A stretch of 64,000 bases of DNA from Minisyncoccota bacterium (GCA_041651055.1 JBAZJW010000002.1:90980-154979), one strand, 5' to 3'. Counted from the first letter of the stretch, positions 16,906 to 57,614 are shown. The notes: a model not told the origin generated them from the letters alone. Made by a program: numbers and translations.

Positions 16906-16934
16906 TTTACTGATTATTATATGTGTAGTATAAT
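16906..16934 (+). promoter_or_regulatory. sigma70-type promoter TTTACT-N17-TATAAT
   Basis: -35 at 16906-16911, -10 at 16929-16934, then AGGAGG and ATG at 16953. Confidence 0.45.
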
Positions 16935-16952
16935 GTGTACCAGGAGGTGCTT

Positions 16953-17117
16953 ATGATGGGTAGTGCTGTAAAGTTTATGAGAATGCTTTCTGAGGCCAAG
17001 ACTGAAGAAGAAGTGACCAGAAAGTGGACCAAGAGACGAGTCTTGCAATTCGCAAGTGGTGTGAGGAAAACTGTATCGAAATGGGCGGAGGTTGGTGACA
17101 TATGGGCAATTCAATGA
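16953..17117 (+). CDS. small hypothetical protein
   Basis: AGGAGG RBS 6 nt upstream of ATG. Confidence 0.4.
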   Translation: MMGSAVKFMRMLSEAKTEEEVTRKWTKRRVLQFASGVRKTVSKWAEVGDIWAIQ

Positions 17118-40442: not shown

Positions 40443-41033
40443 TTATGAACAGTTGCTGTTGCAGTATTCGCTGCACACCGTCTGTTCGCATTTGTTTGCC
40501 TGATCTTCTTTGTACGTCTCTTTGTTGATACCGTTTCTTTTCACCAACATCAGAAAAAACGGATTACCGCAGTCAACTCTGTTTTCTTCACAGCCCCCAA
40601 ATCCATCATTAAGTTCCTGATTGTAATCAAAAAACGGACCATTGCTCAGACAACAACATGTGCTGCACTCATTACTCATGCCTCCGCACGCTTCGTTCCT
40701 CCCAGCAGTATATTCCTTTGTATACTGAATGCATGTTTCCGTGCACGTTCCATTTACACAAACGTTGAAATCACCGCAGTCCTGGTCATACATACAGGCG
40801 TCGCCGGTGCTGGAATCATATTGACGTGCATCGAATGTACATGAATAGGTGCCGTCTGAAAGCACAGAACAGTCGTTTTTGTTGTAACAGAACACCATTC
40901 CGGTGTCAAAGTCACTCAAACACAACTCTGAATCACCGCCGCACCCATTCAGGCTGATGATTGCCCAGGCCACCAGCACGGCCAGGATCATGAAACAAAC
41001 GGCGTAAAGGATCTCTCTAAAAAATTCCTTCAT
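40443..41033 (-). CDS. Cys-rich secreted/lipoprotein-like protein
   Basis: N-terminal TM/signal peptide ending SLNGC; more than 25 Cys; own promoter and AGGAGGT RBS. Confidence 0.45.
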   Translation of the reverse strand: MKEFFREILYAVCFMILAVLVAWAIISLNGCGGDSELCLSDFDTGMVFCYNKNDCSVLSDGTYSCTFDARQYDSSTGDACMYDQDCGDFNVCVNGTCTETCIQYTKEYTAGRNEACGGMSNECSTCCCLSNGPFFDYNQELNDGFGGCEENRVDCGNPFFLMLVKRNGINKETYKEDQANKCEQTVCSEYCNSNCS

Positions 41034-41045
41034 TTGAGTGACCTC

Positions 41046-41081
41046 CTACCCACATTCTACCACAGCTATAATATCCTGTCA
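41046..41081 (-). promoter_or_regulatory. promoter cassette copy (TTGACA-N17-TAGAAT)
   Basis: RC reads CTTGACAGGATATTATAGCTGTGGTAGAAT...AGGAGGT..ATG. Confidence 0.55.
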
Positions 41082-41098
41082 AGTATCAAAACGTATAG

Positions 41099-41299
41099 TC
41101 ATGTATGGTCATTGTTGTACTGTTCTGAGCATTCTGGGCAATAATACTCCGCATCAACGGTACCTGGGTGGGGTAATCTACACCAACCAGCATTTACTGC
41201 GGCACGTATAACGCCATTAGGCAGAATACCTTCAAAGATCTGTGATTTTCCGCACTTATCACAAACCACAACAAGCGTAATTTGCAGAGTTGCTGTCAT
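41099..41299 (-). CDS. Zn-ribbon protein
   Basis: CDKCGKS...CPEC. Confidence 0.4.
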   Translation of the reverse strand: MTATLQITLVVVCDKCGKSQIFEGILPNGVIRAAVNAGWCRLPHPGTVDAEYYCPECSEQYNNDHT

Positions 41300-41314
41300 A
41301 CTTGGAAAAGGAAA

Positions 41315-41503
41315 TTACACGCATTTGCATCCGAGTGATTTGGCCTGCAGGATTTCGTGCAGTTCTTCGATCTTCTCTTTGGCTTGTTCCAGTTCTTGTT
41401 CCAGAGATGAATTTGATTCTCGAAGACGGATAATTTCCTTTTGTAGACGTACGATTTCCTCATCCGCTTTTGACATCAGCGCTGCGTCAACTTGAAGGCC
41501 CAT
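41315..41503 (-). CDS. small coiled-coil protein
   Basis: Heptad-rich 62-aa protein (EIVRLQKEIIRLRESNSSLEQELEQAKEKIEEL). Confidence 0.35.
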   Translation of the reverse strand: MGLQVDAALMSKADEEIVRLQKEIIRLRESNSSLEQELEQAKEKIEELHEILQAKSLGCKCV

Positions 41504-41515
41504 AGATATCTCCTT

Positions 41516-42919
41516 TCAAATCTGGAAGATGGTTTCCTTGATGTGCTCAGTGTTGTTGAGATCGGAAGCGTCAATCGACCACAGCTTGTCGGACAGGGAC
41601 TTGAGGTCGTCGCCGTCTGCGGGTACACCACCAATGACCACAGAAAAGAGCCTGGCACCCAACTTCTTCTTGGTATTAGAGAGTGCTTCCTTATCGGGGA
41701 TGTTGCACAAACCGTCTGTGATGAACACAATGTCGGCTTTGGACATGGAAACGTTCTCCGTAACAGAGGAGAATGCCTTTCCAAGGGCTGACGAAAAATC
41801 TGTGCCTCCGCCGAAAAACATTTCCATGCACTTGAGCAAATCCTCGGTGTTGAATGGAGAGGTGAACTCCTGCTCGTGTCTGACGCACTCCGAGAAGTGG
41901 ATGATGCGGAAAGCGCGCTTTTGCTTAGAGGCCACGAAAGCCATCGCAAGTCCTACTGCTTTTGACCAGATCTCGGGTGCCCCTACCATGGAACCACTGT
42001 TGTCGATGCACACGACGATGGGACCCTTCTTCTCGGTGATGTGCTCGTCGAGCCGGTACTGTACCAGCCCCTTCTCCAGGTACCTCTTGAAGAAATCGAG
42101 TTCGAGATCCCCAGCCACCAGTTTCATGGCCTCAGCGGGGATCAACCGGCCGATGTCATTGCCCATCTCGATGTCGGTGATTTCATCGGGTCCCGGCTGC
42201 TTCTTGTTGGCCTGGTGCTTCTCCGCTTCGTTCTTGAAGCGACCAGCCATTTCCATGATCTGCTTCAGCTTGGCGCTGTTGCGGATCATTTCCATGACGC
42301 GCAGCTTCTGCTGGTCGCCGGTTAAAGAAGCCGCCCCGGAAGTCGAATTGTCATATCCAAAGACGGAGTTTGCTTCGCTGGCATCGTCAAGGGCTTCCTT
42401 GGCCTTTCCGAGCCCACGGCGGATTGCCTGGCGCACCTGGTAGCCATCCAGGTTATTGATGGCCTCAGACCACGCTTTCTTTGAATTGGCCAACTCCTGC
42501 TCCAGCTTTTCCTTGGTAACTTGGTAGTTGGGCCGATCCTGCATGTCTTCCAGGCCGTTCAGATCCCTTTCCACGTCCTTGGGATTGCGATCTTCCATCT
42601 TGGGCAGGGTACTGAGGATCTGCTCGGACAAAACGGAGGTGCCAAGGCCAGACTGGAAGGAATCAAACACCGTGCCTTGGCTGCGAATATCCTTCCACTC
42701 CTTCATGCCGCGCATCTCGTTGAACACCTTGGATGCCCACTCAGGAGAAGGATTATCAAAGTCGGGGTTGGACTGGAATAGGCTACCAAACACACCGGCT
42801 TGGAAGTCCCTGAAGTCCGAGTAACCCTTCGAGACACCACTGTTTTCCACCGTCTTCAGGCCACCGTGCGCCTCGAAGAAGTTGTCAAAGGACATCTTTT
42901 CCCAGGAGGAAAGCTTCAT
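41516..42919 (-). CDS. von Willebrand factor A (VWA) domain protein, MoxR partner
   Basis: MIDAS motif VVCIDNSGSM ... GGGTDF; start ATG 42919 is 10 nt after the MoxR stop with a GAGGG RBS. Confidence 0.75.
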   Translation of the reverse strand: MKLSSWEKMSFDNFFEAHGGLKTVENSGVSKGYSDFRDFQAGVFGSLFQSNPDFDNPSPEWASKVFNEMRGMKEWKDIRSQGTVFDSFQSGLGTSVLSEQILSTLPKMEDRNPKDVERDLNGLEDMQDRPNYQVTKEKLEQELANSKKAWSEAINNLDGYQVRQAIRRGLGKAKEALDDASEANSVFGYDNSTSGAASLTGDQQKLRVMEMIRNSAKLKQIMEMAGRFKNEAEKHQANKKQPGPDEITDIEMGNDIGRLIPAEAMKLVAGDLELDFFKRYLEKGLVQYRLDEHITEKKGPIVVCIDNSGSMVGAPEIWSKAVGLAMAFVASKQKRAFRIIHFSECVRHEQEFTSPFNTEDLLKCMEMFFGGGTDFSSALGKAFSSVTENVSMSKADIVFITDGLCNIPDKEALSNTKKKLGARLFSVVIGGVPADGDDLKSLSDKLWSIDASDLNNTEHIKETIFQI

Positions 42920-42929
42920 GACAGCACCC

Positions 42930-45077
<2,148 letters not shown>

Positions 45078-45112
45078 GCGAACCTCCTAATTGAAAACTT
45101 GATCCTAAGACC

Positions 45113-45141
45113 ATTATACCACAGCTATAATACGCTGTCAA
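45113..45141 (-). promoter_or_regulatory. promoter cassette copy (TTGACA-N17-TATAAT) for MoxR operon
   Basis: -10 RC at 45113-45118, -35 RC at 45136-45141, AGGAGGTT RBS 45081-45088, ACCATAC direct repeats upstream. Confidence 0.7.
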
Positions 45142-45191
45142 GTATTTCGAACAAACGACGACGTATGGTCATGTATGGTAAATAAGACGGT

Positions 45192-45488
45192 TTACCCGAT
45201 CAACAACTTGGCGTGTTCTTTTAGTGCTTCATTGAATGTGCCTGAAGCAATAAGATTACATGAACACTTGTTTGATACCAGTGGTGAAATATCGACTTTG
45301 TAGATGTCCACTTCAAACTCAGAATAAAAGTTTGGATCCAAAGCCCTTTTCTTTTTAACCAAATCCTCGCGCATTAGCATATGATCTGGGTATGTTAATA
45401 CTTCACGGTGTAGAAGTGTTGGACCAAACTTGGGTTTATCGGTTTGGGTGATGATTACCATCAAGAAAGAAGCGTTATTTAGATCCAT
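45192..45488 (-). CDS. hypothetical early protein
   Basis: 98-aa ORF. Confidence 0.35.
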   Translation of the reverse strand: MDLNNASFLMVIITQTDKPKFGPTLLHREVLTYPDHMLMREDLVKKKRALDPNFYSEFEVDIYKVDISPLVSNKCSCNLIASGTFNEALKEHAKLLIG

Positions 45489-45578
45489 TTTGTGTACTAC
45501 CCTTTCTGGTAACTACTTTGCTGTAGATTATCAAAATGGTCAACAGTATCCCGATACCAGTATGCACAAATTCGCTCA

Positions 45579-45851
45579 TCAGAACAGCTTCTTGCCGCTG
45601 ATTCTGAATTTGACTGTGCCGTTGTCCAGGGTAAATTCGCATAACATTTCCTTGCAATTAGTCTTGTTGCCGTACTGCTTTTCGTCCAACACCTTCCAAT
45701 GTCCGTGTACGGTACACCCAGCCACAAACCTGCTTCTGATTTTCTCAGCCTCTGCGAAAAATTGATCCCACGAAGGATCCTTTTCAAGTGCAATACGCTC
45801 GTGAAGAAAACCCTCAGTGTCACGCACTTCGTACACAGCCTTAGTAATCAT
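45579..45851 (-). CDS. hypothetical early protein
   Basis: 90-aa ORF. Confidence 0.35.
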   Translation of the reverse strand: MITKAVYEVRDTEGFLHERIALEKDPSWDQFFAEAEKIRSRFVAGCTVHGHWKVLDEKQYGNKTNCKEMLCEFTLDNGTVKFRISGKKLF

Positions 45852-45878
45852 ATTCCTTCTCCTGTGATAGTATGAGTT

Positions 45879-46109
45879 TTATTCCTCTGTGAAATGTCCG
45901 GGTGACTGCAATTGACTGTGGAGTCGGAGTATTCTTTCTTTGTCTTCGGGCTTTACTTCCACGTCTTTGTAAAAACACGTTGAAGCAATTGAATCTAGTG
46001 CGCGTGGGTACGATACGGATTGCAGGTAGTATCCTGCATTTTCTTGGCAACATACTCCATATTCAACCAAACAACGTTCTAGAAAATCTTTTAATGTTTC
46101 CGCTTTCAC
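45879..46109 (-). CDS. hypothetical early protein
   Basis: 76-aa ORF. Confidence 0.35.
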   Translation of the reverse strand: MKAETLKDFLERCLVEYGVCCQENAGYYLQSVSYPRALDSIASTCFYKDVEVKPEDKERILRLHSQLQSPGHFTEE

Positions 46110-46112
46110 AGT

Positions 46113-46331
46113 TTACCACCCCACATTTCTATGTCCAGTGGTTTTGCTGTATACTTGGTTTCCGTATTCATCCCAAACGGCGTCAATTTCGTAACCATAA
46201 AAGGTTCCGTGTTTCTTGAGGTACTTCTCTTCTGCTGCGTGCATGGCATCCACGGTGTTTTCAGCACGTACACGCACCTGTGATTTGCACTCACCGTCAG
46301 TTTCCTTGAACTTGACTGTGTATAGATTCAT
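46113..46331 (-). CDS. hypothetical early protein
   Basis: 72-aa ORF with AAAGGAGA RBS. Confidence 0.4.
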   Translation of the reverse strand: MNLYTVKFKETDGECKSQVRVRAENTVDAMHAAEEKYLKKHGTFYGYEIDAVWDEYGNQVYSKTTGHRNVGW

Positions 46332-46354
46332 ACGCTTTCTCCTTTGCGTATTCT

Positions 46355-46427
46355 TTATTGTATGGGACCGGTGGGATTCGGACCCACATTCCCTTGATTA
46401 AAAGTCAAGTGCGTTACCAATTGCGCC
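46355..46427 (-). tRNA. tRNA-Lys (anticodon UUU)
   Basis: 73 nt GGGACCGTGGCGCAATTGGTAACGCACTTGACTTTTAATCAAGGGAATGTGGGTCCGAATCCCACCGGTCCCA. 7-bp acceptor stem, anticodon stem CTTGA/TCAAG with loop CTTTTAA, T-stem GTGGG/CCCAC; T-loop TCCGAAT has C rather than U at position 55. Confidence 0.8.
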
Positions 46428-46452
46428 ACGGTCCCGTATTACCAAAGATCAA

Positions 46453-46480
46453 CAACATTTGTATTATACTGCGAGGAGTG
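46453..46480 (-). promoter_or_regulatory. promoter TTTACT-N16-TATAAT upstream of tRNA-Lys
   Basis: RC reads TTTACTGACACACTCCTCGCAGTATAAT, about 27 nt before the tRNA 5' end. Confidence 0.45.
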
Positions 46481-46482
46481 TG

Positions 46483-46776
46483 TCAGTAAATCGGTTTGGT
46501 CCAGTCTGGTGTGGTGCCGGTATTCTCCATTTCTTCGATCTCATCATCCTCCATATCCAACCATTCGTTGTCATGAAAGATTTGTATTCTGCCCGCATTG
46601 CAGTAATCAGGCTTGATGTTGTGCTGGAGCTGGAAAAGATCGTAATCACCCAGCACACTGAGCAACAGCCTGGCATCCCTGATGCTGCTTACAGGGACCT
46701 CGAATCCCTCCATGGGCACCTGTGGGATCCACCAAATCCTCAGATCTCCCTCTGCAGGTTCGTGCTTTGTAGCCAT
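46483..46776 (-). CDS. acidic hypothetical early protein
   Basis: 97-aa ORF. Confidence 0.35.
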   Translation of the reverse strand: MATKHEPAEGDLRIWWIPQVPMEGFEVPVSSIRDARLLLSVLGDYDLFQLQHNIKPDYCNAGRIQIFHDNEWLDMEDDEIEEMENTGTTPDWTKPIY

Positions 46777-46971
46777 CTAAACCTCCTTAATCATTTCCAC
46801 GGACAGTTCGTAGATAGCGAACTCTACATTCCATCCATATTTCTCGTCCAGCTCCTGCTTGAACTTTTCGGCGTCTTCTGCAGTGAAAAAGATCCTGTCG
46901 TGTTGCGCCTTGCACAGCTTCGGCATCGAGCCGTCTGAGCGTCGAGCTGCTACAATAAATGCCTGGTACAT
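46777..46971 (-). CDS. hypothetical early protein
   Basis: 64-aa ORF. Confidence 0.35.
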   Translation of the reverse strand: MYQAFIVAARRSDGSMPKLCKAQHDRIFFTAEDAEKFKQELDEKYGWNVEFAIYELSVEMIKEV

Positions 46972-46980
46972 AATATCACT

Positions 46981-47811
46981 TCACAGCTCCATCAACTTGG
47001 CCTTGACCTGGTTCTCCATGGCATTCAACTTCTCCAGCACGTTCTCACCAGAGAACTTCAATCTCTCGGCGTAGAACTCCACTTCCTTCTTGGTTTCACG
47101 GAAACGTTCGAGAGTGGCTGCCCAACCCTTGGGGGTGCTGAACTTGTTGTTGTTGATCTCCTCCTGGAAGTTATCCAAACGACGGTTCATGTCTTCCATG
47201 AGGCTGTTGTAAATCGCCTTCTTGGTGTCTTCGGTGTTGATCTGAGGCACCAACACCATGCTGCATCCCTCCAGGGACTTGAGCAGTGCCTCCACCTGCT
47301 TGAGTTCCCTGGTGAACTTCTCATCAGCGTAGTAGATACCGCCGCCTTCACGGACAGTCACAGGCGTCATCTTGTCGATGATGTCCTTGATGATCAAACG
47401 CATGTCGTAGGACGTGAGGTTTTCCTTGAAGGAGTTGTACTTGTCCTTGATGAGATCAAAGGCGCGGTGTGGATGATCACAGGTCAGCAACCCGGTCTTC
47501 TGATTGAAAGACATGGTAGCCGAGTGGTGGTACTGCAGGTCCTGTGCCTTGGGGTCAACCTTTTCATCCACCAACCCCACCAGGTGCTGGTCTTTGTCCT
47601 TGGCGATCATACGCACCAAGACATGGTGCTGTCCCTGTTGCTGTTTGACCTGACGCACTGCATTGAGGTAGGCTGTGCGGTCGCAGTCCTTGATGTCGTA
47701 CTTGATGCCCACCTTTTTACAGGAGGCGAGGAAGTCCACCTTCTTGACCAGGACTTCGCGGATGCTCCACCAGAAGAAGTACCCCATGATCACGAGTCCG
47801 TTGGCTGTCAT
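46981..47811 (-). CDS. hypothetical early protein (276 aa)
   Basis: AAGGAGA RBS; first gene after promoter copy at 47834-47862. Confidence 0.4.
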   Translation of the reverse strand: MTANGLVIMGYFFWWSIREVLVKKVDFLASCKKVGIKYDIKDCDRTAYLNAVRQVKQQQGQHHVLVRMIAKDKDQHLVGLVDEKVDPKAQDLQYHHSATMSFNQKTGLLTCDHPHRAFDLIKDKYNSFKENLTSYDMRLIIKDIIDKMTPVTVREGGGIYYADEKFTRELKQVEALLKSLEGCSMVLVPQINTEDTKKAIYNSLMEDMNRRLDNFQEEINNNKFSTPKGWAATLERFRETKKEVEFYAERLKFSGENVLEKLNAMENQVKAKLMEL

Positions 47812-47833
47812 GTCTAAATCTCCTTTCGATCAA

Positions 47834-47862
47834 ATTGTACCACATCTATAATAACGAGTCAA
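47834..47862 (-). promoter_or_regulatory. promoter cassette copy (TTGACT-N17-TACAAT)
   Basis: RC reads CTTGACTCGTTATTATAGATGTGGTACAAT. Confidence 0.5.
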
Positions 47863-47883
47863 GTATCTGTCGTTGTGTGCATA

Positions 47884-47910
47884 CGTCCCCAAGGGGATTC
47901 GAACCCCTGT
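47884..47910 (-). pseudogene. tRNA 3' fragment (T-arm plus 3' acceptor strand only)
   Basis: RC ACAGGGGTTCGAATCCCCTTGGGGACG; no matching 5' half within 80 nt. Confidence 0.3.
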
Positions 47911-47957
47911 ACCAAGCTTGAAGAGACAAACGCCATTTATGTTGAGAAAAATGATCA

Positions 47958-48527
47958 TTAAACGCACTTTTTGCCATTGCGGATGTGCTTCTTTACTGTT
48001 TGAAAACTTACACCAAACATTTTACTAACTCCTAAAATACTATTATCTTTTATTAATTTCATAAGTTCATTGTGAGTAGGCCAACACACCTTTTGATGGT
48101 CTAACTGGCAACATTTAATAGAACAATAACGGTGTCCGTTTCTTTTCACAGGAAAACTGCAACCACAGTGTTCACACACAGATGTTGTACCTCTCTTGGT
48201 GTTTTTCTTGCTGTTCTTTTTATTTCTAATCCACTTTGAGTACTCATTTGATTTATCTGAATTAAAATGAATCTCAGAGTGACAATTTGCACACAGTAAT
48301 TGGCATTTATCTAACTCTTCCTTCATTGTTTCTAGACTACGTTTTCTCATGTGATGCCAAGAAAATTTTTTATTTAATGGGTCTTTATGGTGAAACACAA
48401 GAGCACCTATACATTTATTGTACCCACATATTTCGCATTTGCCTCCTTTATACTCTACAGCCATCTCCTTCAAATACACATATCTACGTTTTATGTATTC
48501 AGAATTATATTTTTGATCATCATTCAT
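47958..48527 (-). CDS. HNH homing endonuclease
   Basis: CEICGYNKC...VFHHKDPLNKK...LLCANCHSEIH (HNH motif) plus C-terminal CxxC zinc ribbon. Confidence 0.8.
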   Translation of the reverse strand: MNDDQKYNSEYIKRRYVYLKEMAVEYKGGKCEICGYNKCIGALVFHHKDPLNKKFSWHHMRKRSLETMKEELDKCQLLCANCHSEIHFNSDKSNEYSKWIRNKKNSKKNTKRGTTSVCEHCGCSFPVKRNGHRYCSIKCCQLDHQKVCWPTHNELMKLIKDNSILGVSKMFGVSFQTVKKHIRNGKKCV

Positions 48528-48827
48528 GTTTGTTAGGTACCACTTTTCTCAGACAGGGCATCATCTCACTTTCCTACTTTCTTGGCGCGTCGCTTTCGGG
48601 CGCGCTTGATGGCCTGAATGACTACGTTGATGATGCTCACCCCCATAAATCCACCTTCCCTAGAACAACTCAGAATCTGTTCTTGAAAGTAAACATGCAA
48701 CTATGTAAATACCAGAAAAAATGTTGTTAAATGCTCCTCCTCCAGTATATTGTGCCTGACAACTATCCCATCTAATACAGTTGTGACAGTTGTAATGCTC
48801 ACCATTTTGTAAATAACGATTCAATAT

Positions 48828-49070
48828 CTACTCCTTCATGCTCAAGAAATTGTCATAGAATGACATACGACCACTTACACACTCCTGGAAATTGAAGTAG
48901 CACCCGCATGCAGGATCGTAGTGTTCGCAATCCTTGCAGTCCTTGCTTATTGCCCACTGCAAGAACGCCTGGACCATGGTGGCTGCTCCAATTTCTGCCA
49001 GCGTTTGCATGCGCCTGTCCTGATCGTGAGAGGAACTGTATGACGTGTGCAAGTCTTCCCAGGAAAACAT
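48828..49070 (-). CDS. small Cys-rich protein
   Basis: CKDCEHYDPACGCYFNFQEC. Confidence 0.35.
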   Translation of the reverse strand: MFSWEDLHTSYSSSHDQDRRMQTLAEIGAATMVQAFLQWAISKDCKDCEHYDPACGCYFNFQECVSGRMSFYDNFLSMKE

Positions 49071-49082
49071 TCCCTTCCCCCT

Positions 49083-49232
49083 TTACTGTTCGCTGCAAAA
49101 AACGTTCAGGACGATGAAAGCAAACGTGTCAAGCACGGCGCTGAAAAAGGACTTACAAAATCCGTGCTTCATATATTTGTGGTAAAGGTACTCACCACGA
49201 AAGTTGGCCAAAATTTTGTTGAAAAAACTCAT
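49083..49232 (-). CDS. small hypothetical protein (49 aa)
   Basis: ATGA overlap with the upstream 54-aa ORF. Confidence 0.3.
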   Translation of the reverse strand: MSFFNKILANFRGEYLYHKYMKHGFCKSFFSAVLDTFAFIVLNVFCSEQ

Positions 49233-49393
49233 GCCAAACCGTTCTCTTTCATGAACTTGACGGTCTTTTCCGCGTCCTGCATCACCTCCTGCACGGCACA
49301 CACCCCATGCACTCCGTCGTGTTTGTTGAGCAGCTCGGCCATGGCCTGGTTGAGTTCACTGATGAGAGAGGAAACTTTGTCGAGAACTGGCAT
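49229..49393 (-). CDS. 54-aa ORF carrying a duplicated MoxR N-terminus (first 20 aa identical)
   Basis: MPVLDKVSSLISELNQAMAE identical to MoxR residues 1-20; the DNA differs only at synonymous sites; same promoter/RBS cassette upstream. Confidence 0.45.
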   Translation of the reverse strand: MPVLDKVSSLISELNQAMAELLNKHDGVHGVCAVQEVMQDAEKTVKFMKENGLA

Positions 49394-49428
49394 GTGAACC
49401 TCCTAATTGAAAACTTGATCCTAAGACC

Positions 49429-49457
49429 ATTATACCACAGCTATAATACTCTGTCAA
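49429..49457 (-). promoter_or_regulatory. promoter cassette copy (TTGACA-N17-TATAAT)
   Basis: Near-identical to the copy at 45113-45141, including UTR and AGGAGGTT. Confidence 0.7.
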
Positions 49458-49496
49458 GTATTTCGAACAAACGATGACGTATGGTCATATATGGTA

Positions 49497-50715
49497 ATTA
49501 GAACAAGCTAAATGTACGATGGTTAATTCATCTTTATTTTTCAATGTTTTACTTTCTTTGTGCATAAGACTTTCAAATACCGTCTCTATCCAACACATGT
49601 GCAGGTCACTTTGCTAAATACTACATTAGAAATCTGTCGTCAAGTCTATAATAAAACATTGGGTATGAGAAAATATACTTACGAGACTGAGAAAAAGTCT
49701 TTATCTTTGTACGATACTCACAACCTATTAACTAAATGGAAAAAGGATAGTGTTCATTGGAACAGTGTTTATTCACAAGTACTAACTAATGTACAAGTCC
49801 GAGTCGATTTAGCCTATAAAGCTTTCTTTCGCAGAGTTAAAGCTAAGCAAACTCCTGGTTTTCCGCGTTTCAAGGGCAAGGGGCGTTATGATAGCTTTAC
49901 TTTTCCTCAAGCTAGTAATCAAGGTGCTAAAATCGTTGGAGGTGGTCTTAGACTCAGCAAGATCGGTATTATATCTACAGTCTTTCATCGTCCAGTCCAA
50001 GGCAAAATCAAGACGATCACTATACGCAAATCATCTACTAACAAGTGGTATGCCTATATCAATGTAGAAATAGATCCTGTACGTTTACCAGCAAATGACT
50101 TGGCAGTAGGTATAGATTTAGGTATAAAGACTTTTGCTGTCTTGTCCAATGGTGAGACTGTACCCAACCCAAGATTTTTCAAGAGATCAGAAAAGAAATT
50201 AGCTAAAGTACAACGCAAGTATTCAAAGCTTGAAAAAGGATCAAGTAAGAGACGTGCGTATCGTAAAGTCGTAGCACGAGTCTATGAAAAGATTTCAAAT
50301 CAACGCAAAGATTTTGCTCATAAACTTAGCAGAAGTCTCGTTCATCAGTTTGGTACAGTGGTGTTCGAGGATCTCAACATACGAGGCATGATACAAGATG
50401 GTCACTTAGCAAAAAGTATCCATGACGTAGCTTGGCATCAGCTAGTACAATACACTATCTACAAAGCGGAAGAGGCTGGTAGGAGTGTAATACTAGTAGA
50501 TCCAAGAAACACGTCGAAAAAGTGCAGCAGATGTGGTAGCATAAAAGAGGATCTAACGCTTGATGACAGGACTTACATTTGTACGAGGTGTGGCTTGGTC
50601 TTAGATCGTGACTTCAACGCATCCATAAATATCTTGGCGCTGGGGCTGCAGCGCCGGGGGCGCTGTGCCCCGCGTAGACGTGTAGACCTAAGCACGTAAC
50701 AGCCACGAGCACACG
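49497..50715 (+). mobile_element. IS200/IS605-family tnpB-only element (approximate ends)
   Basis: Bounded on the left by the end of the promoter cassette and on the right by GC-rich hairpins at the tnpB 3' end (GGCGCTG-GGGCTG-CAGCGCC; GGGGC-GCTGT-GCCCC), typical of the right-end/omegaRNA scaffold. Confidence 0.45.
49560..50699 (+). CDS. tnpB: TnpB (IS605 OrfB) RNA-guided endonuclease
   Basis: FKYRLYPT...; RuvC-I GIDLGIKTFA; RuvC-II FEDLNIRGM; CSRCG...CTRCG zinc finger; RuvC-III DRDFNASINIL. Confidence 0.85.
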   Translation: MHKTFKYRLYPTHVQVTLLNTTLEICRQVYNKTLGMRKYTYETEKKSLSLYDTHNLLTKWKKDSVHWNSVYSQVLTNVQVRVDLAYKAFFRRVKAKQTPGFPRFKGKGRYDSFTFPQASNQGAKIVGGGLRLSKIGIISTVFHRPVQGKIKTITIRKSSTNKWYAYINVEIDPVRLPANDLAVGIDLGIKTFAVLSNGETVPNPRFFKRSEKKLAKVQRKYSKLEKGSSKRRAYRKVVARVYEKISNQRKDFAHKLSRSLVHQFGTVVFEDLNIRGMIQDGHLAKSIHDVAWHQLVQYTIYKAEEAGRSVILVDPRNTSKKCSRCGSIKEDLTLDDRTYICTRCGLVLDRDFNASINILALGLQRRGRCAPRRRVDLST

Positions 50716-50933
50716 ATCTTGAACTTTCCATTCACACACTTGGCCCTGATCTTGATTGTGTCTTTGTAGATCTCAACCAGCTTATTGATTAGCTCCGTGG
50801 CTTGTGCTTCGGTGTCAAAGCTACCAGGCAGGATGCAGATTCTGTCAGTTTCTGATGCTGGTGCAGAAGCCTGCACTTCGATTTCGATGTATTTACCTGT
50901 AGCTGGGTCGAAGGCTTTGATGAACCTGTTCAC
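50688..50933 (-). CDS. hypothetical early protein; 3' end abuts/overlaps the IS right end
   Basis: GTG start 7 nt after the -10 of the promoter copy (near-leaderless). Confidence 0.3.
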   Translation of the reverse strand: MNRFIKAFDPATGKYIEIEVQASAPASETDRICILPGSFDTEAQATELINKLVEIYKDTIKIRAKCVNGKFKIVCSWLLRA

Positions 50934-50939
50934 AAGTCC

Positions 50940-50968
50940 ATTATACCACAGCTATAATACGCTGTCAA
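50940..50968 (-). promoter_or_regulatory. promoter cassette copy (TTGACA-N17-TATAAT) with 18-bp palindromic operator-like site
   Basis: -10 RC at 50940-50945, -35 RC at 50963-50968; perfect palindrome GTATGGTCATGACCATAC at 50990-51007. Confidence 0.65.
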
Positions 50969-51017
50969 GTATTTCAAACAAACGACGACGTATGGTCATG
51001 ACCATACGTCTGGTAGA

Positions 51018-53369
51018 TTATACTGGTTCTAGTACATCTATCTTTTTGAAATCTGGTGGCAGGCACCCAAGTCTGTACATGATTGGTCGCAGTCTGTTTC
51101 CGATTTCCTTATGCAGTTTCTCAATGTCTTTCAGTAACACCCTATACTGTTCTAGCTCCTCTTCTGAGCTGTTTCCAATCCATTTACGTACTTGGTACCA
51201 TCCGGCATCATCCCTTGTAAGTTGCAATCTATACGGTGCTGTGTTTCGGTATCCTATTGTCTCTGTTACCAGTCTTGTGGCCGAATCGATTAGCAGCCTC
51301 ACATCACTACTAAAAAGGTGTTTATGGCTTTCAACCCACTTCGACACAAATGACTGATTGGTGCCAGTATTCACCCAAAAGAATTCGTTTTTGATGTCGT
51401 AGGAGTTACCATTGTATTGCACACCTCCAAGTGACGAAGACTGATTGGAATTATGAAACAGTGACCAGATCACCGCGTCTACTGCAAACTGTCTATACTC
51501 AGGGTGTGTGGTGTCTGGGGTGTTATACTGGTCTTTGTTATTTAGCCACCTTCCCTTCGTCAGTCTTCTGATAGTAAACACTGTCATAGACTGCTCAAAG
51601 TTTTCTGGAGTAATAGACCATCCATTACTATTTGCATATGGTCCAGACAGTATTTCAGTAAAGTCCCTGTGCTGTACTTCGTTAGCATTAGCCAAAAGAT
51701 ACCCAATGGCATCTTCAGACAATCTATTAAGTCTACCTTTTTCCACCACGTTCAGTGCACTTTTCATTGGTGGTCTAACTACCGTGTTCTTAGGTCTATT
51801 AATCCACTTATTCAACGGATCCTTAGCAGGACCAAAACCCTTAGTACCTGTCTTTACCAATGCCCCGTTTTTGTCCCTTTCTAACACATCCAACTCAACT
51901 ATATCAATGTTGATAGTGTTTGAATTTTTTCCTTTTACCCACACAGTAAACAATACTGGCCAGTTGTTGGCAATATCGCTGAACTCTGTTGTCTGGAAAC
52001 CAGAGCCTTTTACAAACTTCCAGTTACTGAACCAAAATTTTCTGAATGACTCATAGTTTTGCCCAACCAGGAAAGATGCTGGTGTGAAGATGCCCAATAC
52101 TGTTCCCTCAGGCATGAGTTCGGTGAGCCTAAACATAAATTGTGGGTATAGATTATTGCAAGTGATCTTTTGATCCTGCATTCTTTCCTGTGTTTTTGTT
52201 CCAGTTACCCCTTTGATGGTGTGTCCGCGTCCGCTGGTATCACCAGCCCACGGCGGATTAATCAACACCGCCCAATTGTGATCATTAGTTAATAGTTCAT
52301 GGATGCCTTTTGGAATATCATCATTCAAAAAGTCTAACTGGAAAATCCTTGCCTTGACCCCGTGTTGAATCATGTTTTCTACATCATATGACATTAGCGT
52401 AGATGCAAAAATTTTGCCTGGTGGGGTTCTGCAGTTCTTTACTAAATTACCTGTTCCAGCACAGCAATCCCAGAAATATATACTATCATAATCCAGGGCT
52501 GCTTTCTGTAAGTATGAGTGAGCCATCAAACACATATCAGGGGGCGTATTTACTTCTCCTGTGTTTCTGCGATCAGAAAGTTCGATTAGTGTATCCTTAT
52601 ATGGCATTATGTTGGAAAGATCTTCTGTGGTGATTCTCTTGTAAACACTCCAGAAGTCATTGTACTCTTTGATGTCTTCAATTACTCCTTCGATTGACAT
52701 CGTTTCGCCATTCCAGGAGATTCTTCCATCCTTGCGGAGTTCATACTTGTTTTGTAGATCAAGAAAAAATGCGGATACCAGAATTTGACTGATTAGATCC
52801 TTGCTTCCGAGCACCGTTTTCTTGATCCTGCTGTTCCATTGTCTGTATACATCGCACACGTTCTCTGCATTTACCGTCCTGGTAATTGCGGAATTATCCT
52901 CCTGAAAATACGCTTTCATGAAACAAGATGCTTCGTACTCATCTGTCATACTGTAGATGTGTGGAGTGCTGATCAGTTCTTCTACTGCATCAATGATATC
53001 TTGACTTGGGTTGCTTGGTACGCTCCAATCCTTTGAGTCATCCTGGATTAGTTGTTCAAATGGCTTTGTTGAGACAATGAATGCTTCATTTTTGTCCGCA
53101 ATTGACACCTTCTTTGGTACACTGAGTGTGCAGTCCTTGTAAATAGATCTTACATAGTGCAATACTTGTGCTGTGCACCTAGACCACTGTTTCTTCATGT
53201 TGTAGTCGAACTTGAATTCAAATATCACACCACGTACATCATCCACCCCATCGCAATTGTGTACTCTATGCAACATATCAACATTAAGCCATTGGACATA
53301 GCAGTCAGTTACTTCTGATTCAGTCTTGGTATTGAGTAATGATTTCACGAACTTTATGGTTGATCCCAT
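51018..53369 (-). CDS. MmeI-family-like gamma-class N6-adenine DNA methyltransferase (Type IIL RM / BREX PglX-like), 783 aa
   Basis: Motif X GEVNTPPD, motif I FWDCCAGTGNLV, motif IV LINPPW; N-terminal VDDVRGVIFEFK resembles the MmeI PD-ExK module; about 350-aa C-terminal target-recognition region. Confidence 0.65.
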   Translation of the reverse strand: MGSTIKFVKSLLNTKTESEVTDCYVQWLNVDMLHRVHNCDGVDDVRGVIFEFKFDYNMKKQWSRCTAQVLHYVRSIYKDCTLSVPKKVSIADKNEAFIVSTKPFEQLIQDDSKDWSVPSNPSQDIIDAVEELISTPHIYSMTDEYEASCFMKAYFQEDNSAITRTVNAENVCDVYRQWNSRIKKTVLGSKDLISQILVSAFFLDLQNKYELRKDGRISWNGETMSIEGVIEDIKEYNDFWSVYKRITTEDLSNIMPYKDTLIELSDRRNTGEVNTPPDMCLMAHSYLQKAALDYDSIYFWDCCAGTGNLVKNCRTPPGKIFASTLMSYDVENMIQHGVKARIFQLDFLNDDIPKGIHELLTNDHNWAVLINPPWAGDTSGRGHTIKGVTGTKTQERMQDQKITCNNLYPQFMFRLTELMPEGTVLGIFTPASFLVGQNYESFRKFWFSNWKFVKGSGFQTTEFSDIANNWPVLFTVWVKGKNSNTINIDIVELDVLERDKNGALVKTGTKGFGPAKDPLNKWINRPKNTVVRPPMKSALNVVEKGRLNRLSEDAIGYLLANANEVQHRDFTEILSGPYANSNGWSITPENFEQSMTVFTIRRLTKGRWLNNKDQYNTPDTTHPEYRQFAVDAVIWSLFHNSNQSSSLGGVQYNGNSYDIKNEFFWVNTGTNQSFVSKWVESHKHLFSSDVRLLIDSATRLVTETIGYRNTAPYRLQLTRDDAGWYQVRKWIGNSSEEELEQYRVLLKDIEKLHKEIGNRLRPIMYRLGCLPPDFKKIDVLEPV

Positions 53370-53401
53370 CTTTAACCTCTTATACAGGTAATCACAAACG
53401 T

Positions 53402-53668
53402 TTATTGAACCTTCAATCTCTGTCTAATGTACTTGTTTCTCAGAAGAAAATTTTTCCTGTGTGCCTCTTTCAATTCAAGATCGTATTTTAACCTCTTTTG
53501 AGGGTTTGTAAGAATTGAATATGCTTTATTCAGCAAAGCCATCTTCTTGACATCACCTGTTTCTTTGTTGTCGGGGTGATAATGCTTGGCAAGAGCAAAA
53601 TAAGATTGTTTGATGTCTTCAATCCTACAATCCTCAGTGACGCAAAGGATTATGTAATAGTTGATCAC
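53402..53668 (-). CDS. DnaJ (J-domain) protein
   Basis: YFALAKHYHPDNKETGDVKKMALLNKAYSILTNPQKRLKYD has the HPD motif and J-domain helix pattern. Confidence 0.75.
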   Translation of the reverse strand: MINYYIILCVTEDCRIEDIKQSYFALAKHYHPDNKETGDVKKMALLNKAYSILTNPQKRLKYDLELKEAHRKNFLLRNKYIRQRLKVQ

Positions 53669-53674
53669 ACCTTA

Positions 53675-53704
53675 ATTTTACTACGACTGTAATAATTTTG
53701 TCAA
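53675..53704 (-). promoter_or_regulatory. promoter cassette copy (TTGACA-N18-TAAAAT)
   Basis: RC reads TTGACAAAATTATTACAGTCGTAGTAAAAT; upstream ACCATA(T/C) repeats conserved. Confidence 0.5.
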
Positions 53705-54078
53705 GTATTTTCTGTGTATGGTCATATATGGTAAATGTGAAAGGAAGGAACACCCCAACCTCGTTAATTATTATCTACATGCTTTTCGGATAGCCTGAAG
53801 TGTTTGGTCCAGCTTTTATGGGCTGATCGGTGGCATTGTGCTCGATGATATTAAGAGTGAGTATTATTGGAATCTTCCGTAGTGTTGGGGACACCAATTT
53901 CCATAACAGTAAACTCTTCGTACCCTTCAGATTGATTTAATAGATGAGCAACTTCAAGTGCCTCACCTCGCGAATTAAATTTTTTAGCCTTGGTGGGGTT
54001 GTTCGTCAAGCAGTTTCGCCACGGCTCATTTGGATCCCACCTGTTGTTACTATACGTCTAATTACTTGTCCTGTTGAT

Positions 54079-54618: not shown

Positions 54619-54639
54619 GCAGAACCTCCAGTTTTGCAG

Positions 54640-54668
54640 AAGTTACCGTGTTTTCATTTGTTGGTCAA
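54640..54668 (-). promoter_or_regulatory. candidate promoter TTGACC-N17-TAACTT
   Basis: RC reads CATTGACCAACAAATGAAAACACGGTAACTT then CTGGAGG ATG. Confidence 0.3.
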
Positions 54669-54689
54669 TGTTCATAAAATATACTTCAT

Positions 54690-54850
54690 TTACTGATCGG
54701 TAAAACGGCCACCAGTGACACTGGTGAGAGGTGACCTCTTACAGGTACAGGTTGCCTAGGTCACCAGGTAACCCGCATCTGGTGCAGGTAGAGGTCGCCA
54801 GGTCACCTATGTGAGGTTGCCTAGGTGCCTAGGTACGGTCGCCAGGCGAC
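54690..54850. repeat. iteron-like short repeats and palindromes in divergent intergenic region
   Basis: CCTAGGT x3, CCAGGT x3, CAGGTA x3, GGTCACC/GGTGACC, GGTCGCCAGGCGACC, CACCAGTGACACTGGTG. Confidence 0.5.
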
Positions 54851-54978
54851 CTAAAACTTTTTTAAAAACAAAGATCGAAGAAAGATCCGGAAAAAATGAA
54901 GGAAAAAGGGGTTTGGGGGAGAGGGGAACAACGATGCATGACGCATAAACCCAAGACTAAACTGTATACTGTGTGGCG

Positions 54979-55022
54979 GCATTCGCCGCCACGTGGTGAC
55001 TGCGAAGCGCAGTCACCACCCC
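54979..55022. other. two adjacent perfect GC-rich hairpins
   Basis: GGCGGC-ATTC-GCCGCC and GTGGTGACTGCG-AA-GCGCAGTCACCAC (12-bp stem). Confidence 0.5.
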
Positions 55023-55089
55023 CACATCTATAGAAATACTTTACCCTGAAAGGAAAGGAAGTACGGCACTCGAAACATGGAGGAATAAC

Positions 55090-56070
55090 TTGCCTAATAA
55101 AGAAGAAAAACAACACATAGTAATTTATACACAGGGTGGATCGGGAGATATAATTGCTTCTACTCCTATGTTGCGTTGCATACATAGGGATTACCCAAAT
55201 CAAGAGTTGGTTGTGGTAACTACATATCCTGTTATCCTAAAAGATAATCCTAATATCAGCAAGGTATTTCCATTCAATGAGGGAATGAATGTTTATTCAG
55301 AATATAAAGATACCGCTGTTATGTTCAAGAAGAGATTTGCTTATGATTATTTTAGAGACGAACACAGAGCAAAAAGCAAGAACATACTTGATTTTATTTG
55401 CAATGTGTATGATACTAAGTGGGATGGTGATCCTCCTGAGGTGTTTTTAACAAAACATGAGCGTGAGTTTGGTCAATACTTTATGAGTCAATTCAAGAAA
55501 CCTGTAATACTGATACATGCGTTTGGTGCTGTCCCCTCTGAGGGTCAATCTAGAAAAATACACGCTCACAAAGATATGCGGATGGATTTGATCTCTGAAT
55601 TGGTTAGAAAATACAGTAAGCATTTTGAGTTCGTGCAAATTGGATTAGCTGGTGAACAGCTTGTTGAGGGTGCGTTTGATGCTCTTGGTATGCAGATGCG
55701 TGAGACTTTTGCGATCATTGACCTGTGTAAAACGTTCGTGTTCATAGAAAGTTTGTTTGCACATTATTCTGCGTGCATTAACAAGACTGGTGTAGTGTTG
55801 TTCAATAATACTGATCCAAGATTCTTTGGACATCCACACAACATTAATATCAATGCACCGCAAAGCTTGTGTGATGAGTGGCCTTGCAATCGACCGGTTG
55901 GTGCTTTGTTGGATCTGGAGCCTGGATACTTAAACCCCAAAACCCGTGAACGCAATTTGTGGACATGTAAGAGAGATATAGTATGCAATCAGATACCGTA
56001 TGCTACTCTTGAGTCTGCGTTTCTGCGCGCTATAGAAAAGAACACCGAAAAAGACGAAAAGAGTGCATAG
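55090..56070 (+). CDS. GT9-like glycosyltransferase (heptosyltransferase-like)
   Basis: TTG start after GGAGG; IVIYTQGGSGDIIASTPMLRCIHRDYPNQELVVVT resembles the GT9 N-terminus. Confidence 0.5.
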   Translation: MPNKEEKQHIVIYTQGGSGDIIASTPMLRCIHRDYPNQELVVVTTYPVILKDNPNISKVFPFNEGMNVYSEYKDTAVMFKKRFAYDYFRDEHRAKSKNILDFICNVYDTKWDGDPPEVFLTKHEREFGQYFMSQFKKPVILIHAFGAVPSEGQSRKIHAHKDMRMDLISELVRKYSKHFEFVQIGLAGEQLVEGAFDALGMQMRETFAIIDLCKTFVFIESLFAHYSACINKTGVVLFNNTDPRFFGHPHNININAPQSLCDEWPCNRPVGALLDLEPGYLNPKTRERNLWTCKRDIVCNQIPYATLESAFLRAIEKNTEKDEKSA

Positions 56071-57153
56071 ATGGAAAATCGCCCATATCAATTCCTGACT
56101 GAAGACAAGAATGAAGCCAAGACAAAGATCATAGCCTACAAGGCTGATAGTGGTGCGTGTTGGTTTTATAGGTTGCATAGTCCGTTGAGTGCTCTTACTA
56201 GAAACAACAAGTCATTTCTGATTTCTGTATATCCGTATATGCATGAATCTCACATGCTAAAGAAAAACACCGATTTGGCTATATTTCAACGTCAATATTC
56301 TGCACAGGTGTTGCAATATGCCATGCAGATGAAGAAAGATGGCATAAAAATAGTTTATGAAACTGACGATGACCTGTTTCATATACCTGATTGGAATCCA
56401 GCACATCACACCTACGCAAAAAGACAAACTCAAGACGTGATCAGAAAGTTTTTGGAAATAGCAGACGCTGTTTTTACCACCACACAGCCGCTAGCTGAGG
56501 AACTTTTGCAGTATAATGATAATGTGTACATACTTCCAAATTCAATAGATTTTAGACTGATTACCGAGAGTCCGCACAATTCAATCAAGAAAGTGGCGGT
56601 GTGGCAAGGATCCGCTACTCATAAAAATGATTTAAAATTGATTACTCCAGCCATAAAGAGGCTGTGTTCTGAAGATAAGTACATGGTGAAACTGATGTAT
56701 GCTAAAATAGAGGGAGCTTATTCTGTTCCGCCTGTTGAACTGCAGGCATTTTACCAGATGATGAGCCAATTGGACGGTACTGTTGGTTTTGCACCAATAA
56801 TAGCAAACAAATTTAACGTGTGTAAATCTAATCTAAAGTTTCTTGAATATGCTGCACAAAAGATAATTACCGTAGCATCTGATGTACACCCATATTCAAC
56901 TTCTATAGTTGATGGTGAAACCGGATTTATAGTAAAGGATAATAAGGAATGGTACGACAAGGCAGTGTGTGTTCTGGAGAACGAGGAACTTATTGAAAAA
57001 GTTACCTCTGCCGCATATGAGTACGTGAAGGATAATTTTGATATAGATGATACATATAAGTATTGGGAGACAGCAATAACAGAAGTTCTGGAAGGAAAAG
57101 ACGCAGATAACCAGGAGAATGAAGATGACAGGTCTGTCGCTAGTATTGATTAA
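56071..57153 (+). CDS. GT1/GT4-like glycosyltransferase
   Basis: DAVFTTTQPLAEELL...VYILPNSIDF pattern. Confidence 0.4.
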   Translation: MENRPYQFLTEDKNEAKTKIIAYKADSGACWFYRLHSPLSALTRNNKSFLISVYPYMHESHMLKKNTDLAIFQRQYSAQVLQYAMQMKKDGIKIVYETDDDLFHIPDWNPAHHTYAKRQTQDVIRKFLEIADAVFTTTQPLAEELLQYNDNVYILPNSIDFRLITESPHNSIKKVAVWQGSATHKNDLKLITPAIKRLCSEDKYMVKLMYAKIEGAYSVPPVELQAFYQMMSQLDGTVGFAPIIANKFNVCKSNLKFLEYAAQKIITVASDVHPYSTSIVDGETGFIVKDNKEWYDKAVCVLENEELIEKVTSAAYEYVKDNFDIDDTYKYWETAITEVLEGKDADNQENEDDRSVASID

Positions 57154-57607: not shown

Positions 57608-57614
57608 GTGGTGC

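Follow-up and report, generated by a model that had tools for sequence, protein, structure and literature searches.

Repeated consensus-type promoter cassettes with paired upstream 10-bp units in a large uncultivated tailed phage

Within a 64,000-nt stretch of DNA (GCA_041651055.1 JBAZJW010000002.1:90980-154979; hereafter the window, numbered from its first letter), we describe a family of promoter cassettes, most of which join a consensus-type bacterial promoter core to a pair of 10-bp units lying just upstream. The family has at least eight copies, six of which read leftward (- strand) at 41-54 kb, the remaining two being further, diverged copies; this number is a lower bound, and covers the window and the flanking sequence read of the 183.6-kb contig to which the window belongs. 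The copies are named by their positions in kb as c41, c45, c47, c49, c50 and c53 (all -), and c16 (+). Our preferred interpretation, which we hold at a probability of roughly 0.6, is that these are early promoter cassettes for the host polymerase, similar in kind to promoter early stem-loops (PeSLs), which were spread by recombination and which each carry an upstream site for a predicted DNA-binding factor. The modules follow one another as two 10-bp units, a linker of zero or one helical turn, ATAC-TTGACA, three free bases joined to TATTATAGCTGTGG (with its TRTGn extended -10), TATAAT, and a leader that has AGGAGG in most copies, or a GTG 6 nt past the -10 in two. Such cassettes would be strong sigma70/sigmaA-type promoters, read early by unmodified host RNA polymerase, while the units would be bound by a sequence-specific protein that occupies a single helix face immediately upstream of the alpha-subunit/UP region and thereby modulates initiation. 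The location of the units upstream of the -35 makes activation somewhat likelier than repression. The cassettes may also serve as portable homology for the insertion, duplication or loss of gene modules.

The family core consists of ATAC-TTGACA, three variable bases, TATTATAGCTGTGG and TATAAT, with 17 nt between the -35 and -10 (18 in c53). The six leftward copies listed in a preliminary description of this DNA were all recovered on the - strand and align as one family (Table 1), and the perfect sigma70 consensus ascribed to them holds for three: c45, c49 and c50 score 12/12, but c41 and c53 score 11/12 and c47 scores 10/12. The cassettes are the top-ranked sigma70-type matches in a scan of 40-58 kb, across which promoter-like sites are overall no more numerous than in shuffled sequences. 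A 29-nt core pattern with up to three mismatches gave four matches (none in 100 shuffles), a looser core pattern (TACTTGACNNNNTATTANAG) gave five where 0.23 were expected, and an nhmmer profile built from the six copies returned E values of 2e-10 to 7e-6 on those six. The last five bases of TATTATAGCTGTGG make up a TRTGn extended -10, which is TGTGG in six of the eight copies (c41, c45, c47, c49, c50 and a copy before the window), TGTAG in c16 and CGTAG in c53. Kayvirus early promoters mapped by RNA-seq share the combination of TRTGn and the TATAAT consensus (PMC7698491). Judged by these sequence features, the cassettes are very likely to be functional host-type promoters.

The similarity among copies extends well beyond the two hexamers, as the preliminary description had held. 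When the diverged copies are compared with c45, the 14-nt spacer block TATTATAGCTGTGG is identical at 10-14 of 14 positions and is as well conserved as the hexamers, whereas the flanks show random identity (4-12/40 upstream, 10-13/30 downstream) and the three bases following the -35 agree at only 0-2 of 3 positions. The TATTATAG part of the spacer is conserved at 36/40 positions in the diverged copies, versus 4/15 for the three free bases (Fisher p = 1e-5), and forms an inverted repeat with the -10 (ATTATA-N7-TATAAT). Three related phages (L016, L019 and L021) keep ATAC-TTGAC and CTGTGG-TAAAAT with another spacer, which is AAAATTGCGATyTGTGG in L019 and L021 and a related sequence in L016. Because this differing spacer is likewise conserved between copies and between phages, we regard the conserved spacer as a lineage trait. 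The TATTAT in the spacer was considered as a second, tandem -10 and was rejected, as there is no -35 at the proper distance; the TATAAT on the reverse strand has a usable -35 only in c50.

Other elements are less uniform than the preliminary description proposed. The UP-like sequence TTTGTTCGAAATAC, described as an AT-rich family feature, occurs in three copies only and is not notably AT-rich, and the conserved 5' untranslated region is common to just c45 and c49, where it falls within their duplication (see below). The AGGAGGT element is present in most copies, but c50 and c53 are without a Shine-Dalgarno sequence (SD). In these two, the sole possible start codon is a GTG positioned exactly 6 nt past the -10 (50933-50940 and 53668-53675, -), which implies that both would yield leaderless GUG mRNAs. 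For c53, the start of the DnaJ protein cannot be moved, because the DnaJ domain begins at residue 3.

Five of the cassettes (c41, c45, c49, c50 and c53) carry a pair of the 10-bp units 'TGACCATAC', rTGACCATAy, and paired units occur nowhere else in the window. The ACCATAC repeats reported previously are thus confirmed for five copies, but c47 has none. The two units are direct repeats with a 10-nt period in four copies, and are arranged as direct plus inverted in c50, where they form a perfect palindrome that is 24 nt long, rather than 18 bp at 50990-51007 as first described; each of its 12-nt mirrored halves takes in the bases GTC, which are not part of the repeat. In all five copies, one unit ends 20-21 nt before the -35, and in the copies with direct repeats the partner is found one helical turn farther up (c45, c49) or farther down (c41, c53), so that the whole site stays on one helix face. 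The units sit at about -46 to -73, upstream of the -35, and overlap neither the -35, the spacer nor the -10. The 10-nt spacing and fixed phase with the -35, which are also seen in L016, are those of a direct-repeat activator architecture (OmpR/PhoB-, CII- or Cox-like). Since they are conserved and held in a fixed register, the units are likely to be a protein-binding site; with their centre near -54 to -65, they are better placed for an activator or an architectural function than for repression of the classical kind.

A search with DUF6744 led us to a true relative, L016, which is a 58.8-kb contig found with the same sequence in three datasets. L016 is syntenic with the window phage, with protein identities of 47% for the tail fibre, 53% for MoxR, 42% for the von Willebrand factor A (vWA) protein, 43% for DUF6744 and approximately 39% for the glycosyltransferases. 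It has a single cassette, located before a 62-aa gene and the contiguous DUF6744-MoxR-vWA genes, which reads ATATGGTCATGACCATAC GTGACTATAC ACCTATATGT AAAAAAATAC TTGACA-18-TAAAAT-GGAGGAGG-ATG. Its last unit ends 20 nt before the -35 (ATAC-TTGACA), its unit pair is 19/20 identical to that of c41, and the cassette shares 19 identical nt with c50. Because neutral DNA would be randomised at 40-50% protein identity, the units and their register appear to be under selection; alternatively, the cassette itself may have been transferred between the window phage and L016. The preliminary description had suggested a search for the cassette in other phages. L016 has a cassette with the same units; BLAST of 50,697 phage records gave no relative, and scans with the exact cassette pattern gave no matches in IMG/VR. 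The same scan produced two chance matches in the JGI metagenomes (one within a tape-measure gene, the other without an in-register -10) and three singletons in the GTDB genomes.

The near-identity of several copies, claimed earlier, is borne out. Copies c45 and c50 are 92% identical over 78 nt, and c45 and c49 belong to a 168-nt direct repeat of 96% identity, with arms at 45017..45184 and 49333..49500 (-). This homology runs from the distal unit to 64 nt inside the MoxR coding sequence, and the c49 arm holds MoxR codons 1-21 fused to 33 unrelated residues, giving a chimeric 54-aa open reading frame (ORF), which is direct evidence of the recent duplication that had been suggested. Between them, the arms bracket a 4.3-kb segment with ORFans, an HNH endonuclease gene, c47, the DUF6744 gene, a superinfection-exclusion-like (Sie-like) gene, tRNA-Lys and further ORFans. 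The repeats are real DNA and not an assembly artefact, since an independent Logan assembly (SRR8542065) is 100% identical across 45119-49425, and its contig breaks inside cassettes exactly where the 31-mers common with c49 and c50 predict. Relative to L016, in which MoxR follows DUF6744 directly, the window phage has approximately 1.8 kb of extra genes plus c45 between DUF6744 and MoxR, and it has further modules upstream that are absent from the L016 arrangement, each with its own cassette. A more distant relative, L021, has a tandem duplication of its own cassette with a 96-nt period (2610-2830, +); this cassette is GATAC-TTGACG-AAAATTGCGATTTGTGG-TAAAAT, with a different upstream element (TCTGATAGATTAAATCACTCCAC). 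The module difference with L016, the 168-nt repeat of c45 and c49 and the L021 tandem duplication together make up the footprint that would be expected of cassettes acting as portable homology. The evidence establishes the sequence anatomy of the cassette, the constraint on its spacer and units, and its spread by duplication.

PeSLs have been shown experimentally in the T4-type phages RB49/phi1, PST and nt-1 to provide homology for module exchange (PMC2839356, PMC4122927). The cassettes of the window resemble them as a multi-copy composite element, in which a consensus sigma70 promoter has an extra module just upstream, and also in being clustered among small non-essential genes and ORFans of a plastic region, here with six copies in 13 kb plus two elsewhere. 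PeSL exchange leaves footprints of the sort seen in the c45/c49 duplication and in the comparison with L016. In contrast to PeSLs, however, in which the upstream module is a G/C-rich terminator hairpin, the module here is a pair of 10-bp units and c50 is alone in folding; conservation of the spacer equals that of the hexamers; and the phage has no detectable relation to T4. Although PeSL-like in its predicted working, the cassette should therefore not be filed as a PeSL, because five of the six copies have no upstream terminator hairpin and the phage is not T4-like.

The single copy that folds bears on an explanation of the units that dispenses with a protein partner, according to which they are what is left of a PeSL-type terminator stem-loop or of a recombination junction, retained only because the cassettes are young copies of each other. 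The c50 palindrome is in fact a strong terminator-like hairpin (10 pairs, z = -2.9) behind the methyltransferase gene, and is followed by a U-containing tail. The cassette homology starts exactly at the distal unit, and the upstream frames of c41 (a 66-aa ORF, whose stop codon lies within the repeat) and c49 (a short, unconfirmed gene remnant) close at the TGA of a unit, which a junction would lead one to expect. RNA folding of the six cassettes, on the other hand, gave no shared structure, with z values between +1.4 and -1.8 for the five besides c50; the other four unit-bearing sites cannot form the hairpin and have no conserved fold (z = 0.24 to -1.8). Moreover, identical units are present in a relative at 40-50% protein identity, and approximately 30 unrelated phages also carry them, at 43 loci (versus 5 in a reversed control; see below). 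By these conservation data the explanation is largely refuted, and we give it very little credence.

The same palindrome underlies a model that takes up the dimeric regulator of the preliminary description: the repeats would be operators at which a dimeric repressor of the phage turns the promoters off. The palindromic form is found in c50 and in L016, so an inverted pair is accepted, and the related phages L019, L021 and L023 encode HTH_3 (XRE-type) proteins directly after DUF6744. These HTH_3-encoding relatives are without units, however, and no helix-turn-helix (HTH) gene was found in the window cluster. With the palindrome as the single exception, the sites (four of five) repeat directly at a 10-bp period, and all five, at -46 to -73, are upstream of the -35 and clear of the spacer and -10. 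A dimeric-operator reading does not fit this arrangement of direct repeats without promoter overlap, and we consider the model improbable.

Beyond the relatives of the window phage, a scan of IMG/VR with TGACYATAYRTGACYATAC found 43 loci, compared with 5 for a reversed-sequence control, and a three-unit pattern found 6 loci, where the chance expectation is far below one. Both of the Y positions in GACY are C in 41/43 loci (25% expected by chance). The contigs with arrays are from 7 to 212 kb in length and from 38% to 69% in GC content, and represent approximately 30 unrelated phages. Arrays often contain 3-6 or more units in both direct and inverted orientation, and some contigs hold several arrays. 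No arrays were found in cultured phages, and full-text literature searches for the unit returned nothing relevant. These widespread TGACCATAY arrays in uncultivated phages, along with the units kept in the distant relative L016, were missed by the preliminary description. It is possible, though we rate it as somewhat doubtful, that a widespread and hitherto undescribed cis-element of tailed phages consists of tandem 10-bp TGACCATAY units. One conserved factor would read this element, which in the present lineage would have been coupled to consensus early promoters and would travel with gene modules as a portable switch. Such a conserved factor could be a host protein, or a small phage protein missed by ordinary homology searches.

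Several observations weigh against promoter cassettes with a dedicated regulatory site. Copies c47, c16 and the one before the window are all without units, and the units are therefore dispensable for the core promoter. Leaderless GUG mRNAs, as predicted for c50 and c53, translate poorly in E. coli-like hosts. A scan of small ORFs in the cluster revealed no HTH, winged-helix or ribbon-helix-helix Pfam domain, the only matches being sub-threshold ones to zinc-finger and coiled-coil families. DUF6744 was considered as a unit-binding protein and was rejected: its AlphaFold model (pLDDT 82) has no significant PDB fold or sequence match, and no DNA-binding fold. Finally, the long arrays in other phages are located in long non-coding stretches, sometimes between convergent genes, a setting that iterons, centromeres or packaging sites fit better.

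The last point leads to a serious rival, namely that the units are iterons for some other DNA transaction, such as a replication origin, a ParR- or omega-type centromere or a site of terminase recognition. The proximity to promoters would then be secondary, and the binding protein would autoregulate or block transcription only incidentally. Sites for omega/ParR ribbon-helix-helix proteins, like the P1 pac hexamers, typically consist of short tandem units that may face either way. In IMG/VR contigs, the units often form arrays of 3-6 or more in both orientations, with several arrays in some non-coding stretches (L028, L066, L029) or arrays between convergent genes. In one GC-rich group, BLAST clusters link 11 loci through a protein of about 620 aa, which has no annotation or Pfam match, is encoded within a few kb of the array, and adjoins a portal-like gene in L050; presumably it is this group's large terminase subunit. 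In L033, a 65-kb viral contig of 65% GC, four direct units and one inverted unit (6790-6840, -) precede a tyrosine integrase gene by 260 nt, and this gene is followed by those for a reverse transcriptase, bpMoxR and vWA. This linkage is not general, however. Clusters of flanking ORFs connect at most five loci (at most 11 when whole loci are used), and among 150 ORFs flanking the arrays (40 of the 43 loci), the commonest Pfam family is a resolvase with 3/150, and partition, replication-initiator and small-terminase genes are not consistently adjacent. In the window phage, the five two-unit sites are dispersed and all stand in fixed helical register with the -35, as does the site in L016, and a single origin or pac site would not be expected five times in 13 kb. 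We consequently judge iterons unlikely, while taking them more seriously than the other alternatives, and retain promoter cassettes with an upstream binding site as the preferred interpretation.

Tandem short-unit systems include the omega repressor heptads, the ParR/parC iterons, the P2 Cox boxes, and the direct repeats of OmpR/PhoB-type proteins and lambda CII. The units described here are similar to such operators and centromeres in having a period of approximately 10 bp and a helical register next to a promoter, and in tolerating direct and inverted orientations, as omega heptads do; their sequence, however, matches none of these, and no such gene is a consistent neighbour of the arrays. 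Comparison at the sequence level with the sites of DnaA, LexA, NrdR, MraZ, CpxR, PhoP and GntR likewise gave no acceptable match. The stoperators of Cluster A mycobacteriophages are single 13-14-bp sites bound by the immunity repressor, which are mostly within or between genes and are not in register with a -35. Along with the start-associated sequences of Cluster K, they are comparable to our units as short asymmetric motifs repeated many times per genome and tied to transcription units, but the motif here is in register with the -35 and is common to unrelated phages.

With respect to the promoter core, consensus early promoters are known from other large lytic phages, of which the SPO1 host-takeover module is a further example. 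Kayvirus has 58 early promoters of the form TTGACW-17-TRTGN-TATANT (PMC7698491). Like these and the early promoters of PaP3-like Pseudomonas phages, the cassettes amount to many near-consensus host-type promoters with a TRTGn extended -10, which would drive early genes. The PaP3 sequence TACTTGACA-AGGTATTAAAACTGTGG-TATAAT is identical to the core here at 28/32 positions, a match that we judged to be convergence on a strong-promoter design rather than homology. Copies in PaP3 share only TGTGnTATAAT, whereas the present family retains all of TATTATAGCTGTGG in eight copies and has the TGACCATAY module in five.

Table 1. Positions and components of the promoter cassettes. Coordinates are those of the window unless a contig is named; positions of elements on the - strand are given in reading direction.
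Copy	Span	Strand	-35	-10	Spacer	Upstream element	Leader and start	Module behind the cassette
c53	53666..53735	-	TTGACA 53704-53699	TAAAAT 53680-53675	18 nt, AAAT+TATTACAGTCGTAG	Units ACCATAT 53732-53726 and ACCATAC 53722-53716, ending 21 and 11 nt before -35; AAATAC	GTG 53668, 6 nt past -10, no SD	DnaJ-domain protein; 783-aa N6-adenine methyltransferase-like protein
c50	50931..51010	-	TTGACA 50968-50963	TATAAT 50945-50940	GCG+TATTATAGCTGTGG	Perfect 24-nt palindrome GACGTATGGTCATGACCATACGTC 51010-50987: inverted unit plus direct unit (50996-50990, ending 21 nt before -35); linker	GTG 50933, 6 nt past -10, no SD	81-aa ORF; then TnpB gene on opposite strand
c49	49391..49500	-	TTGACA 49457-49452	TATAAT 49434-49429	GAG+TATTATAGCTGTGG	Units ACCATAT 49495-49489 and ACCATAC 49485-49479	Leader and SD as in c45; ATG 49393	Chimeric 54-aa ORF; ORFans; HNH endonuclease
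c47	47809..47866	-	TTGACT 47862-47857	TACAAT 47839-47834	CGT+TATTATAGATGTGG	Core only, no TGACCATAY units; GATAC	AAGGAG; ATG 47811	DUF6744; 64-aa ORF; Sie-like protein; tRNA-Lys; four ORFans
c45	45075..45184	-	TTGACA 45141-45136	TATAAT 45118-45113	GCG+TATTATAGCTGTGG	Units ACCATAC 45179-45173 and 45169-45163, ending 31 and 21 nt before -35; 21-nt linker	35-nt leader; AGGAGGT 45088-45082; ATG 45077	bpMoxR AAA ATPase; vWA; two small ORFs
c41 (nhmmer E=8e-10)	41031..41112	-	TTGACA 41082-41077	TAGAAT 41059-41054	17 nt, GGA+TATTATAGCTGTGG	Units ACCATAC 41109-41103 and ACTATAC 41099-41093, ending 20 and 10 nt before -35; then GATAC	AGGAGGT 41047-41041; ATG 41033	196-aa Cys-rich ORF
c16, diverged seventh copy (nhmmer E=0.23; spacer block 11/14 identical to c45)	16906..16955 (core 16906-16934)	+	TTTACT	TATAAT	GAT+TATTATATGTGTAG		AGGAGGT; ATG 16953	54-aa ORF
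Diverged copy about 350 nt before window start (found by profile search)	L013 7138-7110							

The window is part of a circular 183.6-kb contig (ENA ERZ27247363 k141_3129229; the two ends of this ENA record share a 141-nt overlap). Its source is clearly a large tailed phage, an uncultivated myovirus of about 184 kb, which encodes Baseplate_J and tail-fibre-like proteins and is phage-like in all parts read. In the NCBI deposit, the contig is assigned to a metagenome-assembled genome of Candidatus Paceibacterota, which is either a binning error or a hint of the host. BLAST of the region at near and distant settings against the 50,697 phage records found no relative, and the best match of the Baseplate_J protein in a cultured phage is only 27% identical. 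A PHROG scan of ten large proteins yielded one confident match, to a glycosyltransferase, and a marginal one to a second glycosyltransferase (E = 8e-4). A T4-like myovirus was ruled out, given that Baseplate_J is at most 27% identical to that of any cultured phage and that PHROG matches are nearly absent. Homologues of the methyltransferase were tried as a route to relatives, and lead to an unrelated phage with only that gene in common. The sole link to cultured phages at the DNA level is the Sie-like gene (PF17420 / phrog_1510; 46483-46776, -), in which 60-80 nt are 79-87% identical to superinfection-exclusion genes of Vi1-like phages of Klebsiella, Salmonella, Escherichia and Serratia.

The six leftward cassettes are spaced through a 14-kb leftward cluster, which lies between the tail-fibre gene and a divergent glycosyltransferase cluster. 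Each stands at the head of a small gene module, the genes being small or without annotation, and the GC content of the modules spans 33% to 54%. An Rfam scan gave tRNA-Lys as its sole match. Upstream of c47 is a remnant that resembles the 3' half of a tRNA, preceded by the HNH endonuclease gene. This remnant (GGGGTTCGAATCCCCTTGGGGAC, approximately 47885-47915, -) is similar to a T-arm and 3' acceptor strand, is called by neither ARAGORN nor Rfam, and may be a scar of endonuclease insertion.

Other mobile or duplicated elements are found next to the cassettes. The bpMoxR gene (42930-45077, -) contains a 342-aa intein (residues 111-452) directly after the Walker B motif FLDE, which begins with Ala, ends with His-Asn before a Cys, and has a weak homing-endonuclease match; the orthologue in L016 (375 aa) is without it. 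The c50 ORF and c49 are separated by a TnpB gene in the opposite orientation (IS605 OrfB / Cas12f-like; 49560-50699, +). The GC-rich 3' end of this gene runs over the stop codon of the 81-aa c50 ORF, which was probably truncated by TnpB, and transcription from the predicted strong c50 promoter would cross the TnpB gene in antisense. Another TnpB gene, whose product is only 32% identical to the first, is located just beyond the window (L013 4503-5741). The 54-aa ORF behind c16 (16953-17117, +) starts with MMGSAVKFMRMLSEAKTEEEVT and resembles the N-terminus of the 783-aa methyltransferase (MGSTIKFVKSLLNTKTESEVT; 53369, -), and may represent another duplication of a promoter with a 5' gene fragment.

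On the far side of the leftward cluster, the divergent intergenic region between a metallopeptidase gene and the glycosyltransferase cluster (54620-55090) is dense in short repeats of the GGTCACC / CCTAGGT / GGTCGCC type, which may be iterons or regulator sites. The adjoining cluster of approximately 17 kb, which extends from 55090 to 64000 and on to about 72 kb (L005), encodes a full sugar-modification pathway with glycosyltransferases, methyltransferases, a radical-SAM protein, an epimerase, an aminotransferase and an acetyltransferase-like protein, and is partly kept in L016.

Phage genomes are known to gain plasticity through repeated consensus promoters at which recombination can take place (PMC2839356, PMC4122927), and the present case extends this PeSL-like route to a lineage unrelated to T4, with a duplication caught in the act. 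The core is a compact and very strong predicted promoter with a defined spacer, and might be of use in synthetic biology. The upstream units are the more useful result, because they are in register with the polymerase, conserved over deep divergence, and present as arrays in dozens of unrelated uncultivated phages. A pull-down with a unit bait such as ATGACCATACATGACCATAC could expose a new regulator, or a host factor used by phages.

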